Source: Dipteris shenzhenensis
Taxonomy: Eukaryota
Assembly (NCBI GenBank): GCA_047967505.1
Contig: CM106538.1
Reading direction: 5' to 3' (one strand)
Length of the DNA stretch: 64,000 nt
Made by a program: the position numbers and the translations under genes. Below are positions 18,560 through 54,000 of the stretch, one piece after another (position 1 is the first letter of the stretch; the number at the start of each line of letters is the position of its first letter). The notes below the pieces were generated by a model. That model saw only the letters and a list, made by a program, of their open reading frames with translations, did not search any database and was not told where the DNA came from.

Positions 18560-20440
18560 AGCCAGGTATTTGCACCCTACTTGGGAAAGTTCATAACAGT
18601 GTTTCTGGATGATTTTTGCATTTATTCAAGCCGTGTGGATCACTTGAAAAGTTGAGGATTGCATTGAAAAGTATTGATGACGCAAAAGGTTGCCTTAATC
18701 TTGCAAAATGCCATTTGGTCAGGAAGAAGGTGGCTCTGTTAGGACATGTTATCTCAGAGGAATGTATAGAAATGGATCCTGAGAAGGTACAGGAAATCAT
18801 GGCCCTTCCACCACCTAGTAATGTCAGAGAGGTGAGGGGCATTTTGGGTAAAACAAAGTATTACCAATGCTTTGTTGATATGTTTTCTAAAAAGATGTAT
18901 CCTATAAATTTATTGACAAAGAAAAATGTATCTTTCCAATGGGGACTAGAGCAAGATGAGGCATTTGTTTGCTTAAGGAATGCATGATCCAAAGGCCAAT
19001 TATGCAGCCTCCTAGGTGGGAGGATGATTTCTATGTGAATCCAAGTGTGTCAACTCATTCAGTGGGAGCTATACTACTTCAAAAGTGTGAGCAACGACGC
19101 ATGCAACCAGTGTATTATGCAAGTCGGCAACTCACGGAGGCTGAGGAGAGGTACGGTGAGATGGAGAAAGAAGGTTTATCTTTGGTCTTTGCAGTGAAGA
19201 AGTTTAGGTTATACTTGCTACCTCACCCTTTTTTCTTCCTTATGTCTCAACCTGCTTTACAATTTTTGGTTCGCAAACCCAATCCTACTGGAAAGTTTGC
19301 TAAGTGGATTTGTGAGCTTCAAGAGTTCTCTTTCACTTTTATTACAGAAAGCACCACTAGAGCTTTTCTGGCAAATTTGCTTACAGGTAAGGAGGAAGAA
19401 GAAGTAACAAAGGCAAAGGAAGACTTAGATGAAGAGTTGGAGACCCCGCCAATAGCTTTCAAGCTGCATTTTAATGGAGCCTTTAGCCCTTCTAGGAAAT
19501 GTGGGGCTTGGGGGATAATTCTATTTGATCCAGAAGGAAAAGAGGTATGGAAGGGTAGGCAATTTCCTGAAGCAATATCAAATAATGTGCTGAGTACAAT
19601 GCATTGATCTATGGATTAGAATGTTGCCTAAAGGAAGGAGTGAAAGAGGTAGAGGTTAAAGGAGACTCTCAACTAGTCATTAGGCAAATGAAAGGTGTTT
19701 ATAAGGCACAGAGTCCTAATCTACAAGATCTTTATAAAAGAGCGATGGAGTTAAAGGAAGCTTTTGAGTTTTGCAAGTATGTGCATATTCAAAGAAAAGA
19801 TAATCATCAAGCTGATGAGATCGCTACTAAAGCTATGGCTTCTTTCACTAAAGTTACTCTTGCATTGATAGATACAGGTCTCCCAGATGCAACTTGTAAT
19901 CATTTCATTGTGAAATATAAAGAAATACCGAAAGGGGCGCCACGGTTGGCCAGAGCTCCAAGATGTTCAATATTACTTGGATGAAGGACATTTTCCTCAT
20001 GGATTGACCCCTCAACAAAAGCAGAGGCTCACAAGGAATGCTCGTCCTTATAGAATCCTTGGGGATGTTCTATACAAGCAAGGTAAAGATAAGGTTCTTA
20101 GGAGGATAATGAGCTTGGAAGAATCTAAAAGGATTATGGAGCTATGTCATGAATGTTCAGGTCACTTTGCTTCAGCTAGCACTACTTGAAAGATCCTTAA
20201 CACAGGGTATTATTGGCCCCGACTCAACAAATATATCCATGAGTGGTGCCGAAGTTTTGAGGTATGCCAAGCATATGGACGTAAGCAATTGGTTCCTGGG
20301 CCCTTGAATCCCATTCCAGCATATGGTCCATTTGAGAGGTGGGGGTTGGATTTTGTTGGCCTCCTTTCTTGTTCTTCACAAGGGAAGTATTAGGTATTAG
20401 TTGCAATTGATTATGCAACTAGATGGGTGGAAGCAAGTCC
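18560..20440 (+). mobile_element. Ty3/gypsy pol fragment with an additional RNase HI domain (Tat-type): RT, RH, aRH, integrase N-terminus
   Basis: LLGHVIS..DPEKVQEI; PVYYASRQL..EKEGL; LHFNGAFS..SNNV..ALIYGLE..VKGDSQLVIRQMKG..N..AD; CHE..GHF..GYYWP..WGLDFVG..IDYATRWVEA. Frameshifted. Confidence 0.9.
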
Positions 20441-20589
20441 ATTCTCAAATTGGACTTTACACAAATCCAAAAAATTTGAATAGTGTGTTTGTTACTTTAA
20501 TGATGAAACACTTTTGGTGCATTGTCAAAAAATAACTTTTCTTTTTTATACATAGTTGATCAAATGGTAGAATTTTAATATAGTTTGAC

Positions 20590-21130
20590 ATTAAGTTTTA
20601 GATATGCTCAATGCCCCACCCTCTTGATATATATATTTTCCTCCAAGATTTATACACCCCTTAAATGGACAATCATCAATAAGCCAGGTATTACTAGGAA
20701 AAATGGCAAGCAAGGGCTTAAACATGCATTCAAAATTTGGCTTGTCCGGTTGATATAACTTATTTAAGAGTGGTATGTAGCATTGCACTTGACCCATAAT
20801 TTTGTAGAATGTGTGCAAATCCTCAATAATTCTTATCAAATGAGCCACATTTGTACTTAATGTTGTTGACCATTTTTACACATGATAGTAGGAATGTTTT
20901 TATCGAAGCTATGCTTATATATTAATATAAAATCTTGGCAAAAGCTTTCAAGCCCATTTTTTAAGTTTCACAATATTAGGTCTTTATAGCTCGTCGGTGA
21001 GCTATTGTTTCAAGCTATTTATGCTTGGCTCAACCACGAATGAAATGATGCTTCTACTGCTTGCTTGCCTTTGTAACTTAACGACGGTGATCTATTGATC
21101 CAAGGTATTTATGATGAGATCTTGTCCTCT
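20590..21130 (-). pseudogene. Degenerate FCP1/NIF (HAD-family phosphatase-like) domain fragment
   Basis: PSNTWLIDDCPFKGCIN resembles the NIF motif NTLLIDDSPYKxxxN. Upstream RPNIVK and EDLHTF traces. Confidence 0.5.
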
Positions 21131-21970
21131 AATAAAACTAGCTCCGTGGTTTCCATTGAGTGTTTCCTATGTTTATGAAATATATTGCCTGGTTTTATTA
21201 TTATTTATACTTGCATGGTGATATGCAAGAATTATAACTAGCCACTAGTTATAAAATTGAGACATAAAAACACTTGAAAAACTTACAAACTTGCAAAAAA
21301 AATTACTCGCAAAATGTAAAAACCCCAAACATCCTAGTTGCTTAATAATCATGCGAAACATGTAGCTTGTCTACATACATCTGCAATGCACTATAGGAAT
21401 GTGTAAATGAGTTTTCATCATAATTCAATAGATATTTACAAAACTGCTTCTAAATTCATTGAAGTTTTAGGGCTTCTGACTTGATCTTTGGGATGCAATC
21501 TTGGACTTAGCAGTTTCTAGTCAATACTTTCTCAATCACATTGTCCATGCTCATCTAAGAATTTTTGGCAGCACATCTAATGAGAGTGCTCTCAATGAAA
21601 GTGGAACGGAAGAGGGTGAGAGAGAGGGAGAGCCAAAAGTGAGCCACACAAGTTTTGGTGGGTGCAGAACATCTTTTATGTCATCCATATATATATGTGT
21701 GTGTGTGTTTAAGTATTGTACATAACTGAGGTTAAGGCACAATGTCCTTTAACCCTCACAACCTTCCACTTAAAGTCTAATGTGTCTTTAAGGAAGATCA
21801 GCCAATGTACGGAAACATGGCTCAGAACTGTCAGTAAGGACTACAGAACTGTCAATTCAAAAAGGAATAAGATAATCTTTTGTCTGACTAACACGATTTT
21901 GCATTAAATATCTCCTTAGATTTTTTTTTGTTTACCAAAGATTCCGCATCTCTTTTGCCGACGTTTGCAG

Positions 21971-24953
21971 GCCTTTCATGAAGAATCCATCACTGAACTT
22001 GGTGATTGCAAGTTTTCAAAATATTCACATGGATACCGCCACACTTCCACGATTCATGTTATAAAACGACTATAAGATTGACAAACAAACTTCGCAACCT
22101 CAGAAGCACAAAAAATGGCCGATACTAGTGAGTCACTATCTCAGAAGAAGCGATTACACCATCTTCACATCGACTTAGAAGAACAATATGATCCAGTACA
22201 AAAAAAGGATACGGTGCTGAATGCTTAACAGCGGGAAAATATGAGAAGAGAAGGGCTTCAACATATTGACTTATGGTGCGATGGAAGCATATATCCAAAA
22301 TGTCAAGTAACAAACTCTACACCTCCATTTGACAATCCCACCACATTACTGAGGTTTGCCGGCGATGGACAAAATGGACTTCTTGGTTATATTTCAACAT
22401 AGTCTGCATTTGTGGAAACGTATAAAATGATGTACCTACAAGAAAAGGGGGCCAAGATGCAGGAGATAGCCATTCGTGCAAAATTGGAGCAGCAGTTGCA
22501 AAATGAAATTGAGGAGCATTCAAAGAGTAAAAAAGAGTTGATAAGAGCAAGAAAGAAGAGAATCGTACTTGGAGACAGACTATGTAGCAGGAAGATTAAA
22601 AACATTGCAAATTTGAAGGCTGGGACTGGTGGATGCAAGCGACGAATTCAGGAAGCAAGGTTAGATTGAAATTTATTATTTTGTATACTCAAAAAGGCTC
22701 TCAAATGACTATATCTATTTCGTCCCTTACCACAAAACAAGAATGGGGGTGTTGAATGATATAGGCATATTGTGTTGTTACTATAGGAAATTATTGGAGC
22801 CTGTAAAAGAAAATATGGATCCGAACCTTCTTCCTGTTAAACAAATGAAAGGATTGCTTTCTTGTGGTGTAGCAAAAGGTTTGATTGAGGAAAAAAAATA
22901 CAAAATAGTCAAACGCAATGTTGTAGAGGACTTTGTATCCAATAATCAAGTTGATGGCACTATAATCCAAGAGGCTCTTAATGTTAGTGGAGTTAGCAGG
23001 AAGGGATATAGTTCGATTTTCCATGCGATATCCTCAACTTTGAAAGATCAAAGGATTAAACGAGTTTTACTGCCAAATCCAGCAACCGTGTGGAGGATAA
23101 GAGGTCATTTGAATGAAAGTATAGATGAATTTATTGGGCAATATATCCATATTAAAGAAATATTTCATGGTGGTAAAGGAACCACTGTGTATGATCCTTG
23201 GAAAAATATATTTGTAGATCTACAACAACTTCAAAGAAGAATGGTCGAGTTTTATGGAATAACATTTGAGGAGTGCAAAGGCATTTTGAAATTTGTTATC
23301 AAACTGGATGAATGTGAGGTTGTAAAGGAAAAGAAAATGGAAAGAGTTACCATTACATTGATGAATGGAGCAATTGATACATCATTGACTGAAGCGAGTT
23401 CGAAGTATTTTAGTGTGCAGTCAGAGAAACACATATGGTGGTTAGGCTCGTTCCAGGTATGATCATTTTTTGTTTTGTACTTGATTTTGGTCATTGTTTT
23501 CAAATCTATTATAGTAAGACTTTTGTTTTCTATAATCTGGCAGGTGAAGATAGAAGACCATGAAACACTAGATTAGGTGTTTCACCACACAGGAATACCA
23601 AGAATAATCAAAAGACAAGTGAAGGCGAGAATCTCCATGTTGCAGGAAAAGGTGATTTTCAAGTAGAGTGGCACATGGCCGGGGATCTTAAAACACTTAA
23701 GTGCATGTATAACGTTAGTAAAGGAGGCAACTCAAAGTCTCCTTGTCTTTACTGCAAAGAATCAGCTCAAGTAATGGATTCAAAATGGTGGAAGAGAGCA
23801 CCTAATAGAGATAAAGTTGACCCTGACTTCAAGGCCATTCTGGACATTCCACTATGTAATGTTCACATCTGCACATTGCATGGTCTATGTCGAATTATTG
23901 AGAAATTGGTATTTTTATATATTGGATTTGCTTGGAAATTCCGTCCCGAAAAAAATAGAAAGGATGCTCTTCAAGCATTGGAAAAAGTGTTATCCGGTCT
24001 GCATGGAGGAGATGTTCAAATCACAAAGGATTTTAAAAAGTCTACCAATGGCAAGGAGGTACCAATCAAGCCCTCTATTGGTGGTGTTAAGGCAAGAAGA
24101 TTCTTGTCTCGACCCAAACACAGTAAGCAAGTAAGGCAAGGTAGAACAGTTTCAAAGATTAATTATGGATTGTGGAAGCAAGTCCATAATGCTGTGAAAG
24201 ATCATGAGGCAGATGGGGAAGCACGAAATAGGAAGGCAGAGGTGTGGAGGTCTCTTGATCAACTCTTCATGTTCTGTGACAAAGTAACATGGACAAAGAG
24301 TGATTACAAGAACTTTGAGGAGGCAATTAAACATTTTGGGAAGTTAATGAAAGACGCGTGGACAGCCTGCAATATAACTCACTACATGGTAAGGTTCTAT
24401 CTTCTTCTTTTACTTAAGTGTGATCCTCTTTTTTTTATTACTTACTATGCATTCTTATGTCTTACAGCATATCATCTACAACCACCTTCCCTATTTTGTC
24501 AAAAAGTATGGATGCCCAGCAATTTGGTCTACCCAAGGCATGGAGAAGTCTCACTACATGGCACGTAATGCATTTTTCAGACACACACAACACTATGGAG
24601 GGAGTCAAAAGGCAAATAGTCTAAAAGAAGTCTTCCAATGGTTTTACCGAGGCATACTACAGAGGCTGCATGCTAAAAGAAAAGTTGCTAGCTCCAAAAT
24701 CAAGCTTGCTTTTCTTCTAGCCCAAAAGCAAAGACGAAGACAAACTCTAGACAATTCAATGGTAGCAGAGAGACATAGACAATGGAGGGAATCGAAGATA
24801 TTTAGAAACCATAAATGGACAAGTAAACATGAATACAACTCATTTGTAACTTATTGGTGTTATGTCCACATGTTTTCAGACTCAATCAATAGAATTTTTT
24901 TTTGTGGAACAAGTGACTCTTGGTGTTATGCATCAAAAGTATTTCTTTTGTGA
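21971..24953 (+). pseudogene. RAG1/Transib-like DDE transposase, intron-containing and disrupted (exons ~21971-22659, 22787-23456, 23544-24388, 24468-~24953)
   Basis: Motifs in order: KFVIKLDE, HMAGDLK, SKSPCLYC, ICTLHGLCRI, THYM|HIIYNHLP, WSTQGMEKSH. These parallel RAG1 core D600, D708, CxxC, DALH, TNYFHKTLAHVP and WASEGNESGNK. GT-AG junctions keep the frame; several stops and one frameshift. Confidence 0.78.
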
Positions 24954-25246
24954 AACATATGATCTAAACGTAATACAATTTGTTCACAATTTCAATATAT
25001 TGTTTGTTTAATATTTAACAACACCACTCTATCTAAATGTACAAATCATTTCATCTTCAACTTATTGTTCATTTATACAAGATCATACCAGACATCAAAG
25101 ACTTTGTACAAATCAGTTTAACTTTAATATAATGTGTGGGAGTCAACTATTCCAAAGCAAAAACATTTCTCATCATCAAGGAAGAATTCCACAGGGCCAA
25201 AGATAGCAAAACAATGAGGTAGAAGTGAGAACTAAATCAGACATAG

Positions 25247-26880
25247 GAATTTGCAGCAAAATGCGATGGGGGACCATTTGGAAAATATAAAGCACTCTCC
25301 TCGCATTTTGTTGCAAATTCTCCAGTTCTGTTCATATGCATGTCAAATCAAACACTAGGTTCATCTCATTGATTCCTAGACAGTATGATTTGATATGCAA
25401 GAGAAAGGCTGGAGCTGAGTGAAGCTTTTCATGAGGAATGTGTCAACAACAGGAATTTGCAGCAAAATGCGATATGGGCTACTTAGAGATGTATAAACCA
25501 CTCTCCTCGCATTTTGTTGCAAATTTCTAGGTTCTATTCATATCCATCTCCAATCAAATTCTTGGGTGATTTGGTGATTTACCACATTCTTGGATAGTAT
25601 CAATTGAATATGTAACAAGAAGGGTGGAGCTGAGTGAAGACATTTGGACATAAAAAATCCAATGGATGGAAGAAATATATGTCAAAAAACATTGAAAACA
25701 ATCTAGAATTCTGACCTTTTTTTTCCTTTTCCATGCTGTTGGAGTTGCACTGGTGAATCTTCTGCTCTTTCACTAGCTTGAACTCTGCACTCTAGGTAAC
25801 CTGGAGATCTGGCAGTGGTAGTACTCTTCAGGTAGGTTGCAGTCTGGATGGAGTGTGCTGGGTAGGAAAGGATCAGAGAGAGAAGGAAATGGAAGATGCG
25901 AGGGTCCTGGCAGGGATGAAAGATTGGGAGGCAGGGGAGGGAAGAGTGGTTGTGGAATTGATTATGAAATCATGAATGGCACAAGTTCCAAGGCATAAAG
26001 TGTACCTTTCACACGTGCCAAATTTCAAACTCCAAGAGATCTGGGTCCCATCCACACGTGTGAAAAACAACTACATTCCACATGTGTGGGATTTAGTAGC
26101 TGCCTTATTTGTATTTTGCACTTATTTGTGGTATCCTGTCTCAGCCCTCTTGCCCTCCAATCTTTGCTCTCTTGCCTCCCTACCTCCATACTCTGCAACA
26201 TCAGCATCCTGACCAGCGGCACAGGTTCATCCCCAGCACAGGGTACTCATCAACAGCACAGCACATCCACAGATAGATTTCAGGTCAGTAATAATGGGCT
26301 CTTCCCTCAGTCTCTGCAATCTTCTTGCTTACCATAGAAACAATCCATCCTGCATGGAAATGCATAGACTCAATCCATATTTTATTTAGTTGTCAAGACA
26401 GAGAAATCACTGTAGGAATGCAGATCTTCAAGTGTGATATTTGCATGTGAGGGTAAAACTGTACTTATGGGTTCTTCCTTCAGTCTGTCCACACTTCTTG
26501 CCTTCCATAGACTCAATCCATCCTGCATGGACATGCAAACACCTTCAAATGACTGAAGGCATATTCCAGCATGCTCCCTCATGAATTTGCAAGAAAACGC
26601 GAGGAGAAGGCCTTAGGAATTTCAAACAGCCGAAATCGCGTTTTGTTGCAAATATTGAAACGTTGCTTCATCCACCCCTATCATTCTGGTTTTGTGACTT
26701 CCATAGCTAACCATGGCTGTACTCTTCTTGCATAAACTCCATTCATACTGTATTTAGTTGTAAAGACAGAGAACTCACTGTAGGAATGCACCAACATGTC
26801 ATTTCAGGAATTTGCAGGAAAACGCGATTTGGACCTGTTAAGAATTTCAAACTCCTCGTATCGCGTTTTATTGCAAATTT
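25247..26880. repeat. Four palindromic modules (20 bp inverted arms, 33-34 bp spacer)
   Basis: GAATTTGCA..AAAA(T/C)GCGA-N33/34-TCGC(A/G)TTTT.TTGCAAAT at 25247-25320, 25453-25526, 26583-26655 and 26808-26880. Confidence 0.9.
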
Positions 26881-26985
26881 TTCAATGTTGCTTCATCCAC
26901 CCCTGTGATTGCCTTTTTTTTTTCAAAACATGTTCTCCATGGCTGTAATCTCTTTCCATTGCTTTCTATGCAGTTTGTCAGAGTG

Positions 26986-28309
26986 ATGGCAAGAACCAAG
27001 TCAACTGCAAGGAAAGCTGGCAGGTAGATAAGGTTAAGATTGTTGAAGTAACCCACTCAAAGAACACCAGAGGGAAGACTGCTTATGAGAAGTCATTGAA
27101 GCAGCAAATAAAAGAAACAAAATCTGTTATAGATGTGGAGACTGGAAAGAGGGAGCTGCAGATACATAGAAGGTTGCAGGAGCTGGGCCCTAATATAGTT
27201 GTCCATATTGAGGATGAATTTTCAGTGAATGATTTTGACTTGACAAAACCATGCTTGGCAGCATTGGCTCATAAGAATGAGTATTGCTCAGATACTATCA
27301 TTCTTGCAATGCTCTAGTAAGTGTCTATTATTTTACATTTTTGGCAAAACAATCCTCCTTGTACCTCCTTTATACCCTACCCTAATTATTTTTTGGTCCT
27401 ATGCAGCATGATGAGAAGTTGGCTTCACCCCTCTATACAGCATACAGTCCATATTATTGATCCTGCCATTTCTTCTAAGTTAAGAGATGCAAAGGAAACT
27501 CCCATCAGTATTTCCAGCTGGTTCAGACACTGCAATTTTGAAGTAATTGATGTTTTGCTACTTCCATACCATAACAGGTATGTGGGTGACTACTTCTTTT
27601 AAGATTCTTCTTTAAGATTGAGAACTCTTGCAGCCTTTGATTTCCTAATGCTTTTTTCCTTATGCAGTGACCACTGGATTTTTGTTTCTATTGACATCCA
27701 CCAGTAGAAGCAATGCTTTATATTCAACTCTCTTAAAAACACACACAGAGAGCTGAAATTGTAAGTGTTGTGTGTGCTTTTTGAAGTTAAACTTCATTAT
27801 TTTGATATCATACTAACTAAATTATATATATTGCAGTTGCATTAGAAGGCTTCTAGATGCATTGGATCACTGTCCTCCTAATGTCTCTCTTTTGGATTCA
27901 ATAGAGCCAATAAATCTAGAGGTAAAAAATCGTTCCCTCTACTGATGTCTATTTCATGCTATGCCTTTGAACTTATTGAATAATTTTGTTTTGTTCAGAT
28001 GTTAACAGTTTCTAACATATCTTTCCAACTGTACAGACACCACAACAAGATGATTCTAGTAGCTGCGGATGGAGAGTGCTGATCAGTGCAAAATATCTAC
28101 TTTCAAGCTATTTTGAGAAAGAATAGCCAGACCTTGTAAGAAAAAATAATTTTCATTTAGCTTGAAGAAAATTCATAATGATACAAAGTGTTCTAAATTA
28201 TCATATGCCATTGCAGATGAAAGAAGATAGCTTCAGCTCAAACTATGTATATAATTTTAGAGCTCATACAATTTGGAGGTTTTTGAGCTATGCCTCCCCC
28301 AAACTGTAC
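26986..28309 (+). pseudogene. Ulp1/peptidase C48 (SUMO-protease-like) gene with H3-tail-like N-terminus; six exons, disrupted
   Basis: Exons ~26986-27316, 27407-27577, 27668-27760, 27837-27921, ~28037-28135, ~28218-28309. Spliced motifs YCSDTII..LLLPYHNSDHWIFVSID..FNSL..PQQDDSSSCGWRV..FRAH. Starts MARTKSTARKAG with a 1-nt frameshift before the main frame; two in-frame stops. Confidence 0.82.
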
Positions 28310-28557
28310 CCTGGATTTGCTATGAGACTTTTCTCTTTCTTGGAACTTCCCTTTGAACTATGATTTGCCCCTTTGCACACTTAAGGCTTCATCTTACTTG
28401 TTGTCATCCATAAACTTCCATCTAATCTCATTGACCAACAAGTTACCCATAACATCATCAAACTTTAGTACTCCACCCTCACTCCACCAGGTGCAGAGTT
28501 AAACATCAGCTATACAAAAGTCTCTACATCAAAATTCAGCTTTTGACCTTGAAGCTT

Positions 28558-29105
28558 ACTGAAAATAATATTGAATTCATTCAAGTGAGAAGCACTGGAG
28601 ACCCCTTCTTCATTTACAGCTCAAACAACCTCTTCATGAGATAAACTTTATTAGGCAGTTTCCTTCTCATAAGTGACACATAATTTCTTTCACAATTCTT
28701 CCTTAGTCTGATCATTTACTATTGTGAAATAATTTAACTTTGTAAGATGAAATCTAACAGTAGACTTTGCTAATGTATCATACTCATTCCAATCATCCTC
28801 AGACATAGCTGTAGACTTAGCTCTAATTCCGTGCTGAAAATAATATTGAATTCGTTCAAGTGAGAAGCAATGGAGATCCCTCCTTCATTTACAGCTCAAA
28901 CAACCTCTTCATGAGGTAAAATTTATTAGGTAGTTTTCTTCTCATAAGTGGCACATAATTTCTTTCGCAATTCTTCCGTAGTCTGATTATTTACTATTGT
29001 GAAATAATTTAACTCTATAAGATGAAGTCTAACAATAGACTTTGCTAATGCATTCTACTCATTCCAATCATCCTCAGACATAGCTGTAAGCTTAGCTCTA
29101 ATCCT
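28558..29105. repeat. Tandem duplication of ~275 bp inside copia gag
   Basis: ctgaaaataatattgaattc..cagacatagctgta..ttagctctaat occurs twice (~28559 and ~28834). Confidence 0.9.
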
Positions 29106-32100
29106 TTCCAAGGATTTGATCTTATTCTTTTGAACAAGCATGTCCCTTCCATAAAGGAAAAATTTTCCCATCAAACTTTTTAATATTGAAAAAATCATTT
29201 TCAGACATGGAAGAGGATGCCATGATGCAAATAAAGCAAAATCCCAAATGTTAGTGCCTGCAAGAAAGAATCACACCAAAAAGTCAGGTGCACCAAATTA
29301 TGTATGCCACAAGGGAAGGAAATATCATAAAACCTCAAAGGCTCAAAGCATTAAAAAATGCAACTGACTCATGTGTATATATTGTGCATCCATATGAGCA
29401 AATCTGGCCCAAAAGAAAATGTCAAACTGCAATGACAAAACAATGATAAACGCAATGCCAATAAGAACCAAATGCCTCAAGCATAAACACCGTCCATGGG
29501 CATAAGCATCAATAATGTCTCATCCAAGAGAGCATAGTACTATCAATGCATTAATTGCAATGTGTCAAAGATGTCTCAGCATAAAATAACATCTGTGTAC
29601 TAAACGTCCATCAATAAAGCATCCCACAAGGCAATTTGAACCTATTAGCGCATCCAACAAGAATCGCAATGCATCGAAATGGCCTGTAAAGCATCCACTG
29701 CAACCCAATGCAAACCACAAATAAGAGCACATGGCTCAGATTGCAACCAAAGTGACCTGCATAAGGTATGTTTCAAAATCATGGGCCCACAACAATGGTC
29801 GCTACTGAAAATAAAATCTCAAATGTCTCAAAACCACTGTAATCTTTGAATACACGGCATTAATGACATGACCTACACTTTCTATGACTCAAAGAATACT
29901 TCTAGAAATCACTCTAGATGTGAGGTGAACCCAAGTTAAAGCTTGCGATTGACCTGTAAATGAAACCTTAGAAGCCTAAGGTTCAATAAAAAAATGCCAC
30001 TGTAAAAAATCAAAGGTTGGAACCTTTGAGTGGAATTTTGACAGAGAAACAAACGATTCGACGTCTCAAAGAGATGGAACTTCTCCAAATCTCCATAGAA
30101 TCATGCAAGAGTTGACAGATAGGGGTTTTTAGGCCTTTGGAATGAAATAAAATAGACGATTTTGATAATCGTGGTCCCAAACATGGAGTCCAACACACAG
30201 ATTGAAAAATATTTTAACAAACACATACGTTTGTAAACACCATCGGAGTGCGAATGATGAGCAACACAGATATTTTAAGACCTCCTGAGTCCACCGAAAC
30301 TAACAGATTTGCGAATGGTTGCTTTAAACTTGAGTTCCAACACATTGGTAGAAAAACAATAAAGCAAAGACAATGAGTCAGAAATCCAACGAAATGATCC
30401 CAGATTTAAGAATGAAGGGGTTTTCAAACTCTCAAAGTGCAATGGACACCCAAAGCAAGCAATGGTTGCCTCTGCGAGTCATTCAAGACTCTCAGTCGTT
30501 GAAAGAAACAGGGAAATCATCGAAAAACATCTTTTTGCTCCAAAACCACATGTAGGCTTGTAAATAACCACTCAAAGACTTCCATAAACCACTTGCAGGC
30601 TTCTACAAGGTTCCAATACCACCTGGAAAGCTCCAAAAAGCACCCACAGGCTTGCTCTGTCTTCCCACAGAGCTATAGGAGTAGAGTCCAAGCTCCAAGC
30701 ACACACATGGGCTTAGCTAGATCACCCACAAGCATCAGATAGACCACTCGAGCTTTGATACCAATTGAGAATGCTCTCAACGAAAGCAGAATGGAAGAGG
30801 GTGAGAGAAAGGGAGAACCAAAAGAGAGTCACATAAGTTTTGGTGGGTACAAAACACCCTAATCTTCTATGTCATCCATATATATATACATACGGTGTGT
30901 GTGTTTGAGTATTGTACATAACCAAGATTAAGGGACACCAGCCTTTAATCCCCACATCTAATACCATGAAGAAAAGTCATGATCCGAGAAGTCAAAGGAT
31001 ATAACAAGACAGGAAGTGCTTGAGCAAGAAACCAAGAAAAGAGCAACGTATGCAAGAAAAGAAAAGGCCTGAATAGTCGATCATATTCCAGAGACCCACG
31101 GATGTCCTTATAAAGATTACAAACTAGTAAAGTGAATATGTAGTCCATTGTAGCAACTAATCCAGACTTATACAAAGTAAGTGTTCATCACTAAGCTAAT
31201 ATTTGGAGTTAACCAATACCTTTGAATAAATCTATCACACTCTGATGGTGCAATGAGGAAGGAAGGATTCCATGGAATGGGACCAAACACAAAGTTGATC
31301 CCTAAAGTGATTGATGATAATGTCAATGCACACAATCCAAAGGACACAAGTGGTAGGAATAGAGTTGAGAGAAAGAGAGAATTTATTGAGTCTTAACTTA
31401 CTAGATGAAGCTAGAGTAATGGCCATTCTACCTTCAACATAGCTTTGGTCTTGATTTACTCGATGAAGCTCAAGTAACGTCCATCCTGTCTGCTTATCCT
31501 TTGCATTGAATGACTTTGTTTGATCAAAAAATATAAGGCTTCCCTAGTGAATTAATAGTTGTTGCTCTTCAAGAATCCAACGTGGCACTATTTTGTCAAG
31601 AACATGGGTGTTGTATGAGGCAAAACTAGAATCTATAAATGTTCAAAATGCAAGGGCAATCCAAGAGGCACAAATGAGTTTTGCAAAGAACTGTGAAGAA
31701 GTGAGAATAGAGAATGCAAGGGAAAAAATTGCTTTAGCACAAAGATTGGAAGACGTCCAAAGGAGGAGAGAGGAAGCTATGCGGCCACCCACAATTTGAA
31801 TGTAACTAAAACAATTTCGCAACACAAAGAGATAACCAAAGCATATAGTGCAATGAACGTAGAGAATGAGAAAATTCAAAAAGGAATCTCTTGCTCATGA
31901 ATTGACAACTGTATGAAAAGAAAAGAAGCCACATGATAAATAAACTAGACAATTCCTAAATGAGTATGCCTATCTTGTAGATATTTTAAGATGGTATTAG
32001 TGTTCATAATATAAATCAACTTTAAGAGATTCGGCATGTGGAAAAAATAAAATTTAAGAGATTGGACATGTGGAACAAATAAAATTTACACATAGTTAAT

Positions 32101-32788
32101 AGTGAACACTTTTGTAGTTAAAATTGGATTCAACATTGTGTAATCAAGTTATTTGTGATACAAAATGCAGACACCAATTATTGGGAATGAAGCCATATAA
32201 GACAACATTTGGATTCATGGTGCACAAGGGTAGGCAAAAAGGTCAAGTTCGAACATGTTTTACAATCATCAAAAGTTGGTGAAGCGAGTTGGTAGGTAGG
32301 GCCTTTATTATATGTTTAAATATCATCAAAAGTGGAAGAACGTATTTAATAGGTAGGACATATGAAAGCATGGGTCGAGGAGAGTTCTAATGGAAGGAAA
32401 TGAGCAAGGGAGTCAATTGGATAGCTAGATGGCAATCTAATCAACAAAATCAAGAATGTGATGCCCATGTGATGCCTTTCAAAGAGGAGGCATATGCTAG
32501 CAAGCAAACTTAGATGTACAAAACTTTGAAAGCTGGCTATATGGGTATGCCAATGGAAGGGAGATGGCTAGTCAAAGGAGCTAGTGAAGCTCACCAATGG
32601 CCCCATTAATATAAAGTAGAAAGAGATTAAGAGGAATTGCTGCAATTCTATCTTTTATTGGAAGAGTAGTGGCTAATAATCAGACCTGAGTGAAGCTTCC
32701 ACCAATTAGTGTTAAAAGTAGAAATAAGTTAAGACCAAATACATATTTGGAAAGAAAATAGACATGTTCTTTAGATAAACTTGGATGG

Positions 32789-35464
32789 CTAAGTGTAGAG
32801 AGGGCAATGTGGGAGATGGGATACAACACCACTAGTGCTTGAAAGGGCACAAGAGGCAAGAGGGCAATGGTCTGAGAATTTTTGGCCACCCCACCAATCA
32901 AGGCCTTGGCCACGAAACCCCATTGTCAGACTCAAGAATACACCCATGATTGCAGTGCCTGCATCTAATGCAGCCGATAGCACATAGTTGTAGCGCTTCC
33001 ACCAATCTTTCCGATATCGTAAGATATAGAAGTTGAAGACCATGCCCACCACAAACCAAGATGTGTAGTTGATAGTTCCTGCAGCTGGCATCCAACCCAC
33101 GGCCCCGAGCAACACAGGAACATTTATGAGCTTGATCCAAGGTGCAGCTCGGGGGAAGGCTTTGGCCAACAACCACACCGCCACAGGACCCACTAGCCCA
33201 AAAATTAGCACCCAATACATGAGATTCTTGTAAGGACCTTGATTTCCAAAAGTCCTACTAGGGCCCAACACCCCCCATACTATGGTGGTGTCAAAGGCAA
33301 CTACATCCCAAGGGCAAGTCCATGGACTTGAGGTGTCAAGCTTTCCGTCCACGTTGCACATGTGGGGTATCTTATACAACCACCATGCAGTACCCAGGTC
33401 CACTGTCCCTGCGACTACGGTACCTATCACCTGCAATATCCTTAAGTTAGGTGAGCTTTGGAAAGATTTATGTATTAGTGGTAAGCTCTTTAAGAAGCAA
33501 TGTAACTCACCTGGACCAAGAACATGCTCCTAGGAGGGATTTTCATATAATGTCCGAGCTTGAAATCTACCAAGAAATAGATGGCTTGCTGCATGCTCAT
33601 GTGTCCAAACAACTTCAGACCCTGGTTTGCGATCGGATTCCCAGGAAACAGGTACCCTCCGACGAATTGCATCACCACCATCAATGACGGCGTCTGCCAC
33701 CACACACACCCCTACATCGTTACGGGTTTACCTATACACGTCAATCAAGCGAAATCGAGAGAAACCATTTCGACTTATATACCTACCAGATTTGTGGTAG
33801 CTGCGATCACCCCGATGGGTAGCGTCAGGGCTGCAGCTATGGAGCAGCCCAGCACAACTCCCCACCATGGAATCCCTACTTGAGCCTTGAACTGCACACA
33901 AATCACGATAACCCCCACCAAGCACATCACCAAGAGCCCCAAAAACCATCTGTCTGGGATATCTGGGTAGTGGCTCATCAATCGAGTATGCACATCCGCA
34001 CGCCGCTTCCCCGCGTAGTGCTGCAAGGTTTCCCTGATGTTCAGAAGACCAGGATTAGAAGCGTTGTTTGACGCTGCAAATTATCTTCACGAAAAGGTAC
34101 CACTAAACAAAGATTGATACCAGCTACTTACGCGCCGTGAAAGAAGACGAAATGAGTGATCGTAGCCAATGGAGCTGCGAACAATAAGGCGAGGCTAATT
34201 GCAAAGAAGCTACTCAAGTACAAGTCTCCTTGTGTGAAATCTCGTTGTAAAGCAGCTGTAACGTTATATACACCCCCGGCTGCCGTGAACAGTCCCGATG
34301 ATATGATTGGAAAGTTCTGAGCTTTGTAGGCGTTGCTCCAGTAATACGTAAGGGGCGTTACTATGTAGATTATGGCTCCAGCTCCTACCGCCATGTTAAC
34401 GAGGACCGATGCAGGGTACACAAGTGGGCTACCTAAGAACGAGGAAACCGCAGCCCAGTCTAGTGTGAATGCCCCGACTCCGAGTCCTCTGTAGCCGGAA
34501 CCTATCTGTTGGGCCTTTACGGACCTCGGCCAAATCAAACATGCCAGTGACATGCAAGTAAGGAACGGCATAAAATAGCCTGGGAGAACGTAGTATGCAA
34601 AGCTCACGATCGTCATGATGTAGAAGCTTTGAATCCGCGACAGGCCCGATCTTCCCTTGTTTTCATCTGTTTCATGCAACGTCCTGGACATCCCACCATA
34701 TATAATTTACCTTCATTCCGTCCAAAACTGGGAGCTCTCAGAAAATTGAAGGGCACTCAGACTCTTACCTGAATACAGTCACCTGCACCATGGTAGTTGG
34801 CCACCACATGTGTGCAGGATCAATCAACTGCTTTCGCATTAAGCCAGCCCAACCATATCCAATCAACTGCAAAATTTATCTTCAGCAAGAGTGAGCTTTG
34901 CAACGCTATAGCAAGTGTGCAATCGGAGTGCTTCTAGTAGATACGTACCTGACTTGAAAGCACGAGAACGAGAGCTACAGCGAAAGTAATCCGTAAGTGG
35001 TAAAATAGCTTGATAAGGTTCACCATCTCAACGGCAAAAGCCCCTCCATAACCAAATGCATTCCCTGCATTGGCGAAGATAGTGATAAGCACATGTTCCT
35101 TGACACTGAAAGGTCCTGGATTTAGAGAAAAGCCCCAATCGCGGAAGGGGATCCGGACCACGGTTTTGGGAAGAGCATATGCCAAGAACTGGCCCATAGG
35201 AAGGGCTGCCAAAGTGGCTGAGAGTGCGGTAATCTTCATGGGTTCACTACGATACTGGAAGAACTGGTTGACAAACGCTAGCCCAGCGCAAGAGGCCAGG
35301 CCAAGAACCCACATTCGGACTGTCCATACAGGGAGTGTTGGATCATCAGTAGTAGCTACTGTCATGGCGACTTCCTCAACTGGTGAGACCTCGTCGTCTG
35401 AAAAGGCAACTTTTTCCTGCTGGCCGGTTTTCCCGAGTGGAATCATCTCGACGTTTATCGTCAT
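32789..35464 (-). CDS. OPT: Oligopeptide transporter (OPT family); exons 35464-34949, 34866-34769, 34683-34132, 34033-33787, 33693-33511, 33430-32789; 745 aa
   Basis: Signature motifs SPVEEV, DDPTLPVWT.RMW, NPGPFSVKEH, KLGHYMKIPPR and YNYVLSAALDAG. Canonical GT-AG introns give an open 2238-nt CDS. Confidence 0.95.
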
Positions 35465-38400
35465 GATAACCCGTTGGAAGCAAATATCCAGAGGCGTCTA
35501 ATACAGGCAGCAGCAGGATGCGTCACAAGCAGAGCTCTCCCTTGGCGTTGGAGAACAAGTATGATGAATCGAAATCCATGGCACAGGGTTTCTCTTGGGG
35601 TCTATCGTAGAAGAAAGAGTTCCCAAGGATAAACGTAACACAAGGACGGAGAGCAGGAGGGGAAAAGATCTCTAGGATCGATGCAATAAGTGTAGACGGA
35701 GAAGAGCGATGGGGCTGAGAGGGATCGCGATGGCGATGTAGTAACAGAGCAGAATCCAGATGCACGTTTCTTTGACTGCTTTTCCAGCAACCTGTCCACG
35801 CTCAATTCCAAAGGCATTTTTACCTTTGACAAGACCTTTCATTTGGCATTTTGGAGGGAGTAAATTTTGGAAATCTAGGAGGGTTTAAGTGGCGTGCCTT
35901 GGAGATCCAAAATCAAAAAGAAGATGAACGGGATGCCTAGTAGGAAAAAAGAGGGGGGGGGGGCGGGAGAGAGAGATGACTCACCAAGAACTAAAGAGGA
36001 ATGATACTAAAAGTGGCAACAAATTATACAATTCAAAAAAATAAACAAATCCAAACTTGCAAAATTTTTATTTATATTTTCATATTAGATTTTTCATATT
36101 TTCAATAAAGACCTTCAAAATTTTCAACTTAAGGTTTTTTATGTGTTTAGGAAAATGGTTTCTCTCATCGTTGGTTTTTTTCTAAATAAATAGGCCTAAT
36201 TTATGAAGGGGGTGGTCAGCCCTATCAAAAAATAGATCAACATTCTTTGGAGGTTTGGTCCCATGCAAGATGAAACATCTCTAGCCTCGCTAGAAAAGTC
36301 GATGTGAACGGAGGTTTAGCTTGTGAATTGGAGGTGCAAAACTTATCTCCTTCCATTCGACCATTCTCCTCGTATGCAACTTTTGGGTGGGGTCCAAAGA
36401 GATCTACGCTCGCGTCTTCATGATGGAGTGTATACCTTCTAAGTAGGTGTCATTCTCTCTACACATTTGAAGTTTGTCTCAACCACTGTACCTTGCTAGG
36501 CCTTTCCTCTGAGTCTATCCCGTCTATACATCATCTCTCTGCATCAACACGTAAGAAAGCAATGGATTGGAGCTGTGCTTACAGCGATGTAACCATCAAA
36601 ACATCCATCCATGTGACAAGAACTTCTAAACTTATGTTTAAAGAAGAGACTCTTGGCACTCCCTCCATAGAAGAAACCGTGTTAACTCTTCAACCTTTCA
36701 TGGCCCCTGACATGCTATCTATATGAGCATCTAGAGTTAGTGCAATGTACTTCTAAAAAAATATCGTAAAATGGATCATCTATCCCTATATAACATGCTA
36801 AATCTAGAATTTCAAATATCTAAAACAGCTCTCTCGACTTTAAAAATTTGAAACTATCAAACAGACACACCATTTTCAGCTAGAATCAATTGGAAAACAT
36901 TGTGATTTTCGAAAGAAAATTCATCTATACAAAAAGGTATGTCTCCTCCCAACAAGTGAGATAGTGAGGTAGAGAAAGAAAGGAGGCAGCGCATGAGATA
37001 TTGAGGGAGAGAGGCTGAGGGGAAAGAGAGAAAGGAGGGAAAGCACTGAGTGCTGAGGGAGAGAGAAAGGAGATTGAGGAGGGAGCGAGAAATGAGATTT
37101 AAGAGATGGCATTTGAGCAAAGGAAGAGAGGGCGAGGGAGGTGAACAAAAGGGGGGGGGGAGAGAGGACGTATGGATAGAGGAAAGGGGGGCAGTTGAGT
37201 ACAGGAGGAGAAGACAAAACTCGTTTCACGAAGATTCCAGACTTTGTCGAAAGGGGCATTCACAACCTTTATTAATCATTCGCAGGTGGATAACTCACTA
37301 ATACTAATTAGGAATTTTTGAACATCATGGGCTCATCATGGGGACCTATTTAGCAAGCAGTGTAAAAAACAAAGAGCTAGTTTTTTTTTTGGGGCAAATT
37401 TTTGACACCCTCGAGGACTTTGGGGCAAAAATATGGCTCAAAAGTAAAAAACTATCACCAAAGATTTGACTAAGATAAGATTTTATAGCCATTTCATGAT
37501 ACTATTAAACATACTTTTCCAAGGAGGAGTGTTGAAAAATATACAAGCAATAGGTTAGCATTCTACTTGTCCTCCTTTGATCAACTATGCTAGGGATAGC
37601 TTAGCAGAGTACGGCTCTAGAAATTTTAATTGCAAATCCCTTTTTAATCCATTAAGTAGAAAAACTTGGCAAAATGCTTTATCAGTTGCTAATTAGGCTC
37701 GTGCGTCACCATATCATAGAAATAGAAAGCTCACCTAGCTATTAAATCAAGAATCTTCTAAATTAATGGAAATTTTAGAAGTGCACATAGTTTCACAAGA
37801 AGTTAGCAAAGTCTCTAATTGGACGTAGTGTCTGTATCTTGATTAGCAATGTCTTCCAGGTCACCCACTAGCAATTACAAGAATTCCATGCAAGCATTTA
37901 ACACACGCACCCTCCTTTTAATAACGACACGTATTGAAATATTAAGGCACAAAAACAACTCACCATGAATAAATTAAAGTCATATCATCATATCATCATG
38001 GTTGCGTTCTACACTAAGAGATCTTTCCATATGCATTTACTACTTCAAATTTCGACAATGCATGCAAAACTTACATGATTTTGAGACATTTTCAGCATAT
38101 GTTTTTTTTTTGGGGGTTTAACCCCCTTTTTAGGATATTATGTAAAATATGCCAAAATCATAAGATCTTGCATATTTTGTAAAGGATATGGTTTATGCTT
38201 TGTAAATTTTCATATTTCCCCTTATGTATTTAAGACTTTTGTAGAAGCATGCATATTCTACACTTGAGTGTAGTAGTATAATACATATTGAGTTGAAGAG
38301 GGGCAATGACACTCGGGTCGGAATCAATCTAGGAGTCAGTGTTCACTGAAAACTGAGGTCTAATGTTAGGTGGATGAATGGCTCAAAACCTTTAAAATTT

Positions 38401-51030: not shown

Positions 51031-54000
51031 TGAAGAATGTAAGAGAAACATACAAAAATTATATAAGTAATATGCGCATTCACATTAATTTTCATGTTCT
51101 GGATACTACCAAATCATTTATGTTCTAGGACACATAACAATATTTGGAATCGTTTAGAGTTCTACATCCAAAATCAATGTGGCTATTTGCGACACTAACT
51201 TAGAATACTCCATGCAAGCTTGATAGACCTCGAGAGAGAGAAATCGTCCAATTGTCTTGCCCCCTCCCAACATAATTGGATGATTGTGAATGTGGTAATA
51301 TACCTGTTAAAATAGGTGTGGGATGACAAATTATCTTTTCCCATGTTCTTCTCTCTCTCTCTCTTGTAAGCATCTATCTACACCATGATCATCTGCAAAA
51401 TCATGCTCTATTGAGGATGTTGGTATTTTACATACACTAGTGTAGTAGCTATCATTACTTACACAAGTACTTATAAACAAATTTACTGCTACTTTCTAAG
51501 CTAGGAGACTTTGTTAACCTAATACCCTCAATCCTCAATATTATTTTTTTGTACGTATATATGAACTATGGAGTTTGAGTTCTAATAAGGGCTACAAATT
51601 GCAATGTATGCAACATAATCATATCTATTTTATTTCACCTAATAATGTATAAAACATAAGGATAGTAAACCTATGTATACCACTATCTCTCCACATGTAC
51701 ACGCCATAATTTTGTGAGTTGCTACGAGCTAGCAATTGCGAGCCCCACAATTGGCTAGACTTCGAGCAAGATGAAAATTGTTGGCATAGGGGAGCCCGCA
51801 ATCAGCTCGAAGTCAAATATTTCCTCGTCACTCTTAAATCCTACTTTGTAGGGTTTTACTAATACATAGTATAGATTTTAACCACATACGATATGTTCCA
51901 GGTCACGGCCTAAGTGAACCTCTAACCAACACGTGGTATAATATTATTTATCAATGAATGCATTGTTCCAGGTCAGCTTAAGCAAACCTCCAACCGGCTC
52001 ATTGACTTTTTTTTTGAAATATAGTTACAAGCTATAACTACATGCTTATAAATAAATACATATGCTAAAATTAAGAAAAACATACACACAAACATAAGAT
52101 TTTCCAAAATTAAATCATTTCATGCATCTTGTAATGTCTAGTATTCCATTTTGCCAAAGCTTGTTGCCAGTAACTACGATATTTCATGCAACTAGATCGA
52201 AATCTTAAGTCATACAACTAAACTAAAATCCCAAGCCATGCAACTAACAAACTCTTGACCTAGTCCTAAGTGACAAGTCTTTCCAAAGAGTCTAGACAAG
52301 TTCCAACTCAAATACTTCATGCAAAAAATTAAAATCATCTAAGCCATGTACAATGTCACAACTAACTTACTCTTTACCTCCACTGCATACTTTGTGAGCC
52401 ATTGTGCGACCTTGCCTACTAAAGTTAACTCAAAAGCTACTTCCTGTCGGAGGGCGGCAGATTGTTGAACTCATACACCTTCTTAGATTGTCATACATGA
52501 GCATCTTGGTCATCCGATTTCCCCCCTGCAAACTTGGCATACTTGACTTGGCCCACCATCACAGTGCCTCTTACGTTTGGTGCTCCTCCTCCTCCAAATA
52601 CACACCTTGATCGAAGAGATTGTGAGAAGCAGCTGAAACCCTCTTCTATGGCTTGTTCTATGTAATGTTCAATGGGATGGCTAAGATTTCTATGGTTGTC
52701 GGTCAGGTTCCTACCTTTCTACATACAAAGAGGTCAATTGTTCTACTTTTTTTGGCCTACTTCCATACCCACTATTGTCACTTGGGTATTGATGAACTTT
52801 TGAGAAGTGCAGCAGCAATGAACTAGGAATGGAGAGAGAGAGAGAGCACACCTACAAAATACCAACATTTGGTTCTTGCTGTCCACACATTCATTTGAGC
52901 TTTTGTTTTCATTAGGACATTTCATCCCATAATATCCTTTAGTATTTGCAACTGGAATCACTTGATTTCTATCATGTATTAGCTCATCATTGCTTGGCTC
53001 ATCACGTATCTTTTCATCCATCAGGCTTGCTTCAAACCATGTGGGCCATGCCCTCCTGATGCTTGCAGTGTCTCCATTAGCTACTACTACCATTCTGCTC
53101 AGCTCGAGAGAGAAAGGGGGCGAGGGGAAGAGAGATAGAGAGAGATTGGGAGAGGATTTGTATGTGTTTCATGGAAAGGTTTATTGTGACTAACACAGCT
53201 TTTTAATTTGTAGGGCTTTAATTATGCTAGGACTCAATGTCATATTCAGTGCCCCCATGAAATTCCTAAAGTAGAGTACAAATGAGTCTTAGTGGAAACA
53301 ATGCAATAGCACGAATATTTTGGACTAAGAAATTTCATTGAAAATTTGGGGAACTAACCTTGCAGCCTGTATTCTCCTCTTTCAGGCACCACTATTGGTT
53401 GACAATGCATCCAGAGATTGCAATTGTCTTTTCCTCTCCTTCAGTCCCAAAAGTGTTTCCTTCAACTTTTTTACTCGTTCTATCGACTTCTCTCGTTCCT
53501 TCTCCATAGCACGTTGAACTTGGCCATAGATAGACCTTTCCAAATCTTGTTTGCTTTCAATGAGCTTTTGGATTGATTTTTCCAATTCCTGTTGCTCCAA
53601 GTCCAGTGCACGTACTTTGTCTCACTGAGTTCTTTGTTTTGCAATCAGAGATCTTGCATGCTATTATGCATTGCCACAATAGTAATATTTCCCAAATGTG
53701 CACGTTCTTTTGCTTGGGCTCTCTGCACCTCGATTGCTTTGCATATCCAATGTCTAAGAATGGTTCAATCGATTGCAATAACCAAGCAATCCAGCATGTC
53801 CATTGCCAACAAGCTGAACAACATCATGCACTGCATGAAAAGGAAGGCTCTTTTGGGTGGTAGGGTCTAAAGGATGCAAGTTTCCATCTACCCAAAGGTC
53901 AAGATGCTTCTTCCCTTTTGTAGTCAAAGACTGGGAAGCACACTTTGAGGAGTTCCACTATATTCCAAATGTGTGTGCTTGCATATTCTACCTCCACTTG

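Follow-up and report, generated by a model that had tools for sequence, protein, structure and literature searches.

We analysed a stretch of 64,000 nucleotides of contig CM106538.1 from the Dipteris shenzhenensis assembly GCA_047967505.1, which is referred to below as the window. Positions 22115-24953 of the window are likely to represent a decayed gene for a cut-and-paste transposase, a member of a green-lineage family that has no Pfam model and would stand on the RAG1/Transib-Chapaev side of the CMCT clade, perhaps being identical to the superfamily Lanisha. Judged by its motifs, the gene encodes a CMCT-clade DDE transposase built around a RAG1-type core. The source plant and its close relatives contain the transposon in very large numbers, and the copy in the window is no longer able to make the enzyme.

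Structure of the transposase gene

The listing of reading frames and their translation delimit a gene of four exons on the plus strand (22115-24953). Its ATG is at 22115, 144 bases downstream of the start at 21971 that had been given in a preliminary description of this DNA. The parts of the gene and its motifs are as follows.

22115-22659, plus strand: exon 1, with the ATG, a conserved N-terminal domain, a coiled coil, the GTGGCKRRI motif and two in-frame stops (translation and tblastn to the relatives P0206, P0001 and P0170)
22660-22786, plus strand: intron 1, 127 nt, GT..AG, phase 2, GC 0.31
22787-23456, plus strand: exon 2, with a putative helix-turn-helix-like stretch GVSRKGY (by eye) and the predicted first catalytic Asp in KFVIKLDE
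23289-23312, plus strand: KFVIKLDE, codon of the first Asp (D1) at 23307-23309
23457-23543, plus strand: intron 2, 87 nt, GT..AG, phase 0, GC 0.26, a 29-codon insert relative to P0206
23544-24388, plus strand: exon 3, with EDHETL, AGDLK, CxxC, CTLH and THYM
23678-23692, plus strand: AGDLK, codon of the second Asp (D2) at 23684-23686
23741-23755, plus strand: PCLYC, with CxxC at 23744-23755
23870-23881, plus strand: CTLH
24389-24467, plus strand: intron 3, 79 nt, GT..AG, phase 0, separating THYM from HIIYNH
24377-24388 joined to 24468-24485, plus strand: THYM and HIIYNH, brought together by removal of intron 3, with HxxxxH at 24468-24485
24468-24953, plus strand: exon 4, with HxxxxH, the predicted catalytic Glu, the C-terminal region and the TGA stop at 24951-24953
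24525-24548, plus strand: WSTQGMEK, codon of the Glu at 24543-24545

The N-terminal domain in exon 1 runs DLWCDGSIYP..FAGDGQNGLLGY. The closest long relative, the protein P0206, aligns colinearly with all four exons at 40-57% identity per segment, and each of the three introns, which are AT-rich (GC 0.26-0.31), is backed by alignment to homologues that are contiguous across the junction in question. The three GT-AG introns proposed earlier were confirmed in this way at the sequence level, in agreement with the homologues, and the six motifs named in the preliminary description are all present on the plus strand in the order given there.

The RAG1-type core

The alignments show the D, D and E residues conserved in this order, together with the C(2)C and H(3-4)H signature of the CMCT clade. 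In the window copy, the distances D1-D2, D2-C, C-C, C-H, H-H and H-E are 97, 20, 3, 212, 5 and 20 residues, and the corresponding distances in mouse RAG1, taken from D600, D708, E962, C727, C730, H937 and H942, are 108, 19, 3, 207, 5 and 20 (PMC4914335). Thus, the D..D..CxxC..HxxxxH..E order of RAG1 that had been noticed before is borne out, and the spacing is nearly that of RAG1. The group of enzymes with this active-site layout is the one from which vertebrates obtained the recombinase of their antibody genes. According to PMC12730594, the combination of D/D/E, C(2)C and H(3-4)H is shared across the CMCT clade, plant CACTA and moss Lanisha included, and the clade is further characterized by 5'-CA..TG-3' termini and target duplications of 2-5 bp. 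Since the motif order is common to the whole clade, the RAG1-like spacing is close but not specific and does not single out Transib. At the level of single motifs, RAG1 reads D-E-K from D708 and the transposase family D-L-K at the same place; plant CACTA has H(3)H, whereas RAG1 and the transposase family have H(4)H. A beta-beta-beta-alpha-beta pattern around D1 and D2 can be recognized by eye in the sequence.

These residues suggest how the enzyme may have worked. An RNase H-like fold would bring the D of KLDE, the D of AGDLK and the E of QGMEK around two Mg2+ ions, and the CxxC and HxxxxH motifs, 212 residues apart, would jointly bind one zinc clamping a large insertion domain; the zinc ligands of RAG1 that correspond to them are C727/C730 and H937/H942 (PMC4914335). 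A dimer assembled on the ends of the element would then nick the DNA, convert the flanking DNA into hairpins and reinsert the element.

Distribution and conservation of the family

When exon 3 was used as the query, 18 longer relatives were found, and the number of related clusters in the representative library was 206 at E<=1e-3, 91 at E<=1e-10 and 17 at E<=1e-30, most of them fragments. Full-length relatives of 857-900 aa are P0012, P0168 and P0170. Relatives are also encoded at 28 metagenome loci, among which L004 to L007 contain intact open reading frames (ORFs) of 787-845 codons. The P0158 cluster corresponds to a 'hypothetical protein' of the prasinophyte alga Cymbomonas tetramitiformis, and in the fern Adiantum nelumboides two gene models contain short stretches of the family. 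No relative of the transposase was found in the viral contigs and prokaryote genome contigs scanned, and a profile search of a large protein collection with the profile A5 returned the query itself alone.

In a tree of 28 rows, the window copy groups with P0001, P0206 and L017 (support 100/99), and the algal rows occupy long basal branches. The ratio of nonsynonymous to synonymous substitution rates (dN/dS) between L017 and L018 is 0.12 at dS 0.61, which indicates that the protein has been under purifying selection. Conservation of the motif columns was assessed in the 88-row alignment A2, counting the rows that cover each column. D1 is kept in 37/40 rows, D2 in 56/60 and the K after D2 in 63/64; the two cysteines of CxxC are kept in 53/61 and 54/62, and the Cys and His of CTLH in 69/74 and 74/76. 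The Glu is present in 9/12 A2 rows, a count blurred by intron read-through, and is invariant in the seven full-length rows of the alignment A3. In P0012 numbering, the conserved columns are D404, D501, K503, C521, C524, C582, H585, H755, H760 and E779. Such family-wide conservation makes the motifs more than chance occurrences. HxxxxH is found in every row that is contiguous at the corresponding junction except for the algal rows P0147 and P0115. These two algal-looking metagenome relatives have lost both CxxC and HxxxxH and retain D, D and E, so that the zinc module seems dispensable in their lineage; the loss of the zinc ligands but not of the three acidic residues is consistent with a triad of catalytic acidic residues to which the zinc site is accessory.

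The introns of the window gene recur in its relatives. At the site of intron 1, P0001 and P0206 contain a read-through insert, and P0012 and P0168 are contiguous. At the site of intron 3, the sequence diverges right after (T/S)xY(M/L/I)V in 11 relatives (P0001, P0007, P0206, P0010, P0011, P0013, P0016, P0018, P0088, P0170 and P0172), and likewise in seven loci (L004-L008, L013 and L017); the junction is contiguous in P0012, P0168, L001, L002, P0147, P0115 and P0158. Because 11 proteins and seven loci diverge at this point, as expected from read-through of the GT, the intron before HxxxxH is old within the family. The preliminary description had taken the introns, this one among them, as a sign of long residence, and the recurrence of this intron in many relatives agrees with that view.

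Copy number, expression and decay of the window copy

To estimate abundance, public contigs and RNA reads were compared with positions 20500-27500 of the window; X1 denotes organism A, X2 one DNA run of organism B and X22 an RNA run. A total of 6821 X2 contigs match this stretch, 1499 of them at >=99% identity, 2428 at 95-99%, 2257 at 90-95% and 637 below 90%. The summed X2 depth is 1.2e5-3.8e5 over 21670-24945, compared with 7-37 over 20500-21435, and past 24945 it is lower but still high up to the end of the compared stretch (27500). Contamination, which the preliminary description had already argued against, can be rejected given this high-copy status: the window copy is native high-copy repeat DNA. 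A second, partial relative from another subfamily is located in the window on the minus strand at 53274-53948 and consists of the N-terminal domain and coiled coil only (tblastn with P0018, E 8e-21, and with P0170, E 1e-18).

From two RNA runs, 100 and 227 reads mapped to 20500-27500. Splicing in the source organism is predicted rather than seen, since no splice joint over the window gene reached the reporting threshold in the two runs; the end of intron 3 is covered in 7/9 RNA reads at 24463.

The window copy itself is dead, with three in-frame stops and one 1-nt deletion. The preliminary description had left the broken frame unremarked; what the window contains is a pseudogene copy with the following lesions.

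22226-22228, plus strand: TAA stop, private to the window copy; C at 22226 (CAA) in 134459/134459 of the X2 contig depth and in the single X1 contig
22400-22402, plus strand: TAG stop, almost private; C at 22400 (CAG) in 127590/129716 of the X2 depth and in the X1 contig
23574-23576, plus strand: TAG stop in exon 3 (translation)
23621-23622, plus strand: frameshift, one base missing relative to some other copies, just before AGDLK

At the last of these sites, the X1 contig, 9181/67279 of the X2 depth and 8/14 X22 RNA reads have an additional C following 23621. As the extra C is found in a minority of the X2 depth, many genomic copies carry the 1-nt deletion.

Surroundings and ends of the element

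The following repeats and hairpins flank the gene.

21581-21775, plus strand: left direct repeat of ~190 bp (TG..CA), preceded directly by TCTAA, 81% identical to 30766-30956
21823-21854, plus strand: CAGAACTGTCA twice in direct orientation upstream of the gene, with no further exact copy in the window; an inverse 9-mer lies at 25323-25331
25248-25525, no strand assigned: two palindromic hairpin units downstream of the gene, arms AATTTGCAGCAAAATGCGA, DNA fold z -5.6 and -5.7
26584-26879, no strand assigned: two further hairpin units of the same kind, fold z -4.5
30766-30956, plus strand: right direct repeat, followed directly by TCTAA

The CAGAACTGTCA pair may be a subterminal motif, although the evidence is weak. 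The hairpin arms occur eight times in the window, compared with 0.04 expected by chance, and all of them lie just downstream of the gene; similar hairpin arrays come after the ORF in L006, L007 and L009. The number of units varies among copies, as shown by X2 contigs that join 25526 to 26664. From its sequence, the pair of direct repeats looks like an older shell of the long terminal repeat (LTR) type around the gene and 6 kb of other sequence.

Position within the CMCT clade and alternative explanations

Which branch of the clade the family belongs to was approached through protein language-model neighbours, which by the tool's own warning are leads only and whose statistics are not measured for protein parts, a caution that counts against our assignment. 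For the whole P0168 protein, the best match is a cluster from nematodes in which half of the members contain DUF1280 (0.95, 199/256 features), and RAG1 clusters follow at 0.85-0.88. For residues 400-860 of P0168, all ten of the named clusters listed are RAG1_RNase_H/ZnC2/ZnH2 or DUF1280 (0.90-0.95), with 9/10 best matches in one family or clan by the tool's count. The families DUF1280, DUF1258 and Transposase_21 are taken in PMC3985635 to stand for Chapaev, Mirage and CACTA, respectively, and RAG1 groups there with DUF1280 and CACTA with Mirage; PMC4411706, in a figure legend, includes Chapaev in a broadly drawn Transib superfamily. As far as such leads go, within the CMCT clade the family looks most like the RAG1/Transib-Chapaev side and not like plant CACTA.

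Several further observations weigh against the interpretation of the gene as a mobile transposase of this branch. No sequence-level link to RAG1 or Transib was found with the solved-structure and Pfam searches. HMMER, run five times against the sequences of solved structures with exon 3, exon 4 and the profiles A1, A3 and A7 (E up to 10), returned no RAG1/Transib chain, the rows obtained being chance matches to an epoxide hydrolase, a coiled coil, TIR-APAZ proteins and a ribosomal protein. Pfam, in a set that lacks the new RAG1 models (PF26100), assigned no transposase superfamily to six exon-derived stretches or to the 18 rows of A1 (15 homologues and three window exons); the A1 scan, taken to E 10, produced 30 families that matched a single row apiece, and the 25 of these that were listed are all unrelated. 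Neither terminal inverted repeats nor a secure target duplication were found around the window gene, so its mobility by the transposase is deduced from copy number alone. The element termini were left undefined by searches based on inverted repeats, CAGAACTGTCA, the 21811 complement, the heptamer, flanking repeats, a read-derived 20-mer and the metagenome loci. Moreover, the amplified form may be defective, most of the X2 depth having the 1-nt deletion.

The relation to RAG1/Transib claimed in the preliminary description therefore stands in part. The RAG1-type core and the nearest named language-model clusters speak for it; the motif order is clade-wide, HMMER is silent, and neither ends resembling recombination signal sequences nor a secure 5-bp duplication were found. 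The term 'RAG1/Transib-like' seems fair for the build of the protein and probably for its mode of action; membership in Transib is not shown. The likeness to RAG1 and Transib (e.g., HzTransib) consists of the same succession of D, D, CxxC, long insertion, HxxxxH and E at near-identical spacing. The family differs from them in its N-terminal domain, which has no RING or zinc-finger match in Pfam, and in being hosted by green plants and algae; in some members, the accompanying gene resembles histone H3 and not RAG2. Transib was described in PMC1131882 as encoding a protein of ~700 aa, with a 5-bp target duplication and heptamer-spacer-nonamer ends; the same 2005 paper reported Transib as absent from green plants and algae and found none recognisable in plant genomes, and the classical literature reported RAG1-type transposases from animals and a rust fungus. 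A literature search for Transib in plants and algae yielded no description of a plant Transib, only rows in RepeatMasker tables and Lanisha, and a broad screen of DDE transposases counted only 35 Transib transposases, the text on it being silent on plant Transib (preprint).

Strict membership in Transib is consequently an alternative that we regard as unlikely. In its favour are a spacing of zinc ligands and catalytic residues almost identical to that of RAG1, the H(4)H motif, and the presence of RAG1 and arthropod RAG1_RNase_H clusters among the closest language-model matches. The silence of Pfam does not exclude Transib, because a genuine Transib transposase, Nozomi, also has no InterPro match (bioRxiv 10.64898/2026.08.26.747230); even so, the five HMMER searches contain no RAG1/Transib chain, and the family proteins, at 800-900 aa with an unrelated N-terminal domain, exceed the ~700 aa of Transib (PMC1131882). 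The possible ends are equivocal. Close to the left limit of the high-copy region, at 21738, there is a CACAATG heptamer with an inverted copy at 32134-32140, the inverted match extending to 8 bp (21738-21745 with 32133-32140; the nonamer was not sought), but CACAATG is not enriched in the window, with 19 occurrences for 13.9 expected, the flanks TAAGG/TAATC agree at 3/5 positions, and the heptamer at 21738 is inside a direct repeat whose homology runs on past it. Likewise, the identical 5-bp TCTAA pair that flanks 21581-30956 would suit a Transib duplication, yet it brackets TG..CA repeats that are direct, not inverted.

A very divergent CACTA/EnSpm element appears somewhat less probable still. 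CACTA is the usual plant member of the clade and has the C(2)C and H(3-4)H signature in common with the family, the short-repeat arrays beside the gene recall CACTA subterminal regions, and Lanisha, a possible identity of the family, is said to resemble EnSpm (PMC12730594). Opposed to this, the 25 of 30 families listed for the 18 A1 rows, with E values of 10 or less, do not include Transposase_21, Transposase_24, DUF4218 or Transpos_assoc, no CACTA family is among the language-model rows listed, and neither CACTA termini nor a TnpA-like ORF were found in the window, relatives having a histone-like gene instead. For the other superfamilies that the preliminary description had set as possible placements by a profile search, no Pfam model matches either: hAT and Mutator, together with Harbinger, were rejected on this ground and because their motif pattern is wrong.

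Could the gene be cargo of the LTR-type element 21581-30956 and have been multiplied by retrotransposition? The ~190-bp TG..CA direct repeats, 81% alike, and the identical TCTAA on both outer sides would fit, but we consider this very improbable. The first 89 bp of the left repeat are far shallower than the gene (3364 in the bin 21436-21669, 134053 in the next bin), no primer-binding site or polypurine tract was seen by eye next to the repeats, the introns are retained, and unrelated fragments also lie in the interior. The gene is 90-99% identical to most matching contigs and the two repeats are only 81% alike, so the gene-bearing repeat is younger than the shell; since the gene is closer to its other copies than the repeats are to each other and the depth of the left repeat is low, we read the transposon as lying inside the shell. 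That the gene is a domesticated host gene rather than a mobile element is hardly credible. Its introns are conserved, purifying selection has acted between lineages and RNA reads map to it; against domestication stand the three stops and the frameshift of the window copy, the thousands of similar contigs in one sequencing run, the second fragment in the same window and the many decayed copies among the metagenome loci.

If the gene is, as we favour, a transposase of the RAG1/Transib-Chapaev side, two named groups deserve comparison. Chapaev (DUF1280) provides the top whole-protein language-model match of P0168 and is grouped with RAG1/Transib (PMC3985635, PMC4411706). PF06918 (DUF1280) was not matched by HMMER in the A1 rows, no Chapa-like N-terminal zinc finger was detected, and Chapaev has been described from animals, in contrast to the green plants and algae that host the window family. 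Lanisha was proposed as a superfamily from the moss Ceratodon purpureus, where it makes up 1-5.8% of the chromosomes (GenBank MT647524; Repbase Reports 2020; PMC8245031); PMC12730594 counts it among the members of the CMCT clade and describes it as 'showing similarity to EnSpm'. By description alone, it resembles the window family in being an abundant, hitherto undescribed cut-and-paste element of a land plant that belongs to the CMCT clade and has C(2)C and H(3-4)H. On this description, the chances that the family is Lanisha or its kin are close to balanced, and the novelty of the finding is limited to the extent that the family may already carry that name.

A histone H3-like gene associated with the transposase

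In several relatives, a histone H3-like gene is located downstream of the transposase on the same strand.

L027, 883-1377: Pfam Histone PF00125, E 3.7e-31; H3.3 chains, E 4.9e-33; start MARTKQTACK
L001, 1675-2226: Pfam Histone, E 7.3e-34; more diverged start
L002, 2210-2698: copy with one stop and a more diverged start
L019, 2658-2888: start MARTKQTARK

The H3-like gene region was also delimited as 633-1377 in L027 and 1723-2226 in L001. Over the histone fold, interrupted in L001 by a long insert, the protein of L027 is 40% like that of L001. In the 28-row tree, the carriers fall into at least three subfamilies. Searched in all six frames across the 28 loci and the whole window, a loose pattern for the H3 start has only seven matches, and 7/7 are downstream of the transposase on the same strand. 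No histone fold was seen in 11 loci with ~820 or more bases downstream, or in the window. The window contains, on the plus strand at 26986-27022, an ORF start MARTKSTARKAG that copies the H3 N-terminus for 12 residues and is followed by GT; it is probably a remnant of the H3-like second gene of the family. Organism-A (X1) contigs match up to 27022 and from 27023, differing beyond on each side. The boundary 27022/27023 would mark either where two repeats meet or where the H3-like ORF was interrupted by an insertion.

It is possible, though we think it rather doubtful, that the green lineage, both land plants and green algae, hosts an old RAG1/Transib-Chapaev branch of its own which has the zinc and catalytic geometry of RAG1 and ancestrally carried an H3 variant gene, the N-terminus of its product copying the H3 tail; the gene would supply a transposon-borne histone or a tail mimic against chromatin silencing. 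If confirmed, the linkage of an H3-like gene to the transposase in several subfamilies would represent a new kind of transposon cargo and would bear on how mobile elements handle host chromatin. With respect to the transposase itself, a widespread, expressed green plant and algal family with RAG1 spacing would, if true, push this architecture deep into eukaryote history. The family would also offer an abundant plant study system, with intact ORFs of 850-900 aa in public data, and its copies are now annotated as 'hypothetical' or unclassified because it has no Pfam model.

Other features of the window

Several further features of the window were also recorded.

32792-35497, minus strand: OPT oligopeptide transporter gene of several exons, apparently a host gene; three ORFs match PF03169, best E 1.2e-29
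105-678, 18613-20393, 55240-55791 and elsewhere: LTR retrotransposon fragments, placed by eye on the basis of the ORF lists
28559-29102: a 275-bp unit present twice in tandem, the copies 92% alike

A Pfam scan of 51 ORFs identified the LTR retrotransposon pieces by their reverse-transcriptase RNase H, integrase, SH3_Tf2-1 and copia-type gag domains, and it gave one match to the hAT dimerisation domain. The minus strand of the tandem 275-bp unit resembles, by eye, a fragment of copia gag.

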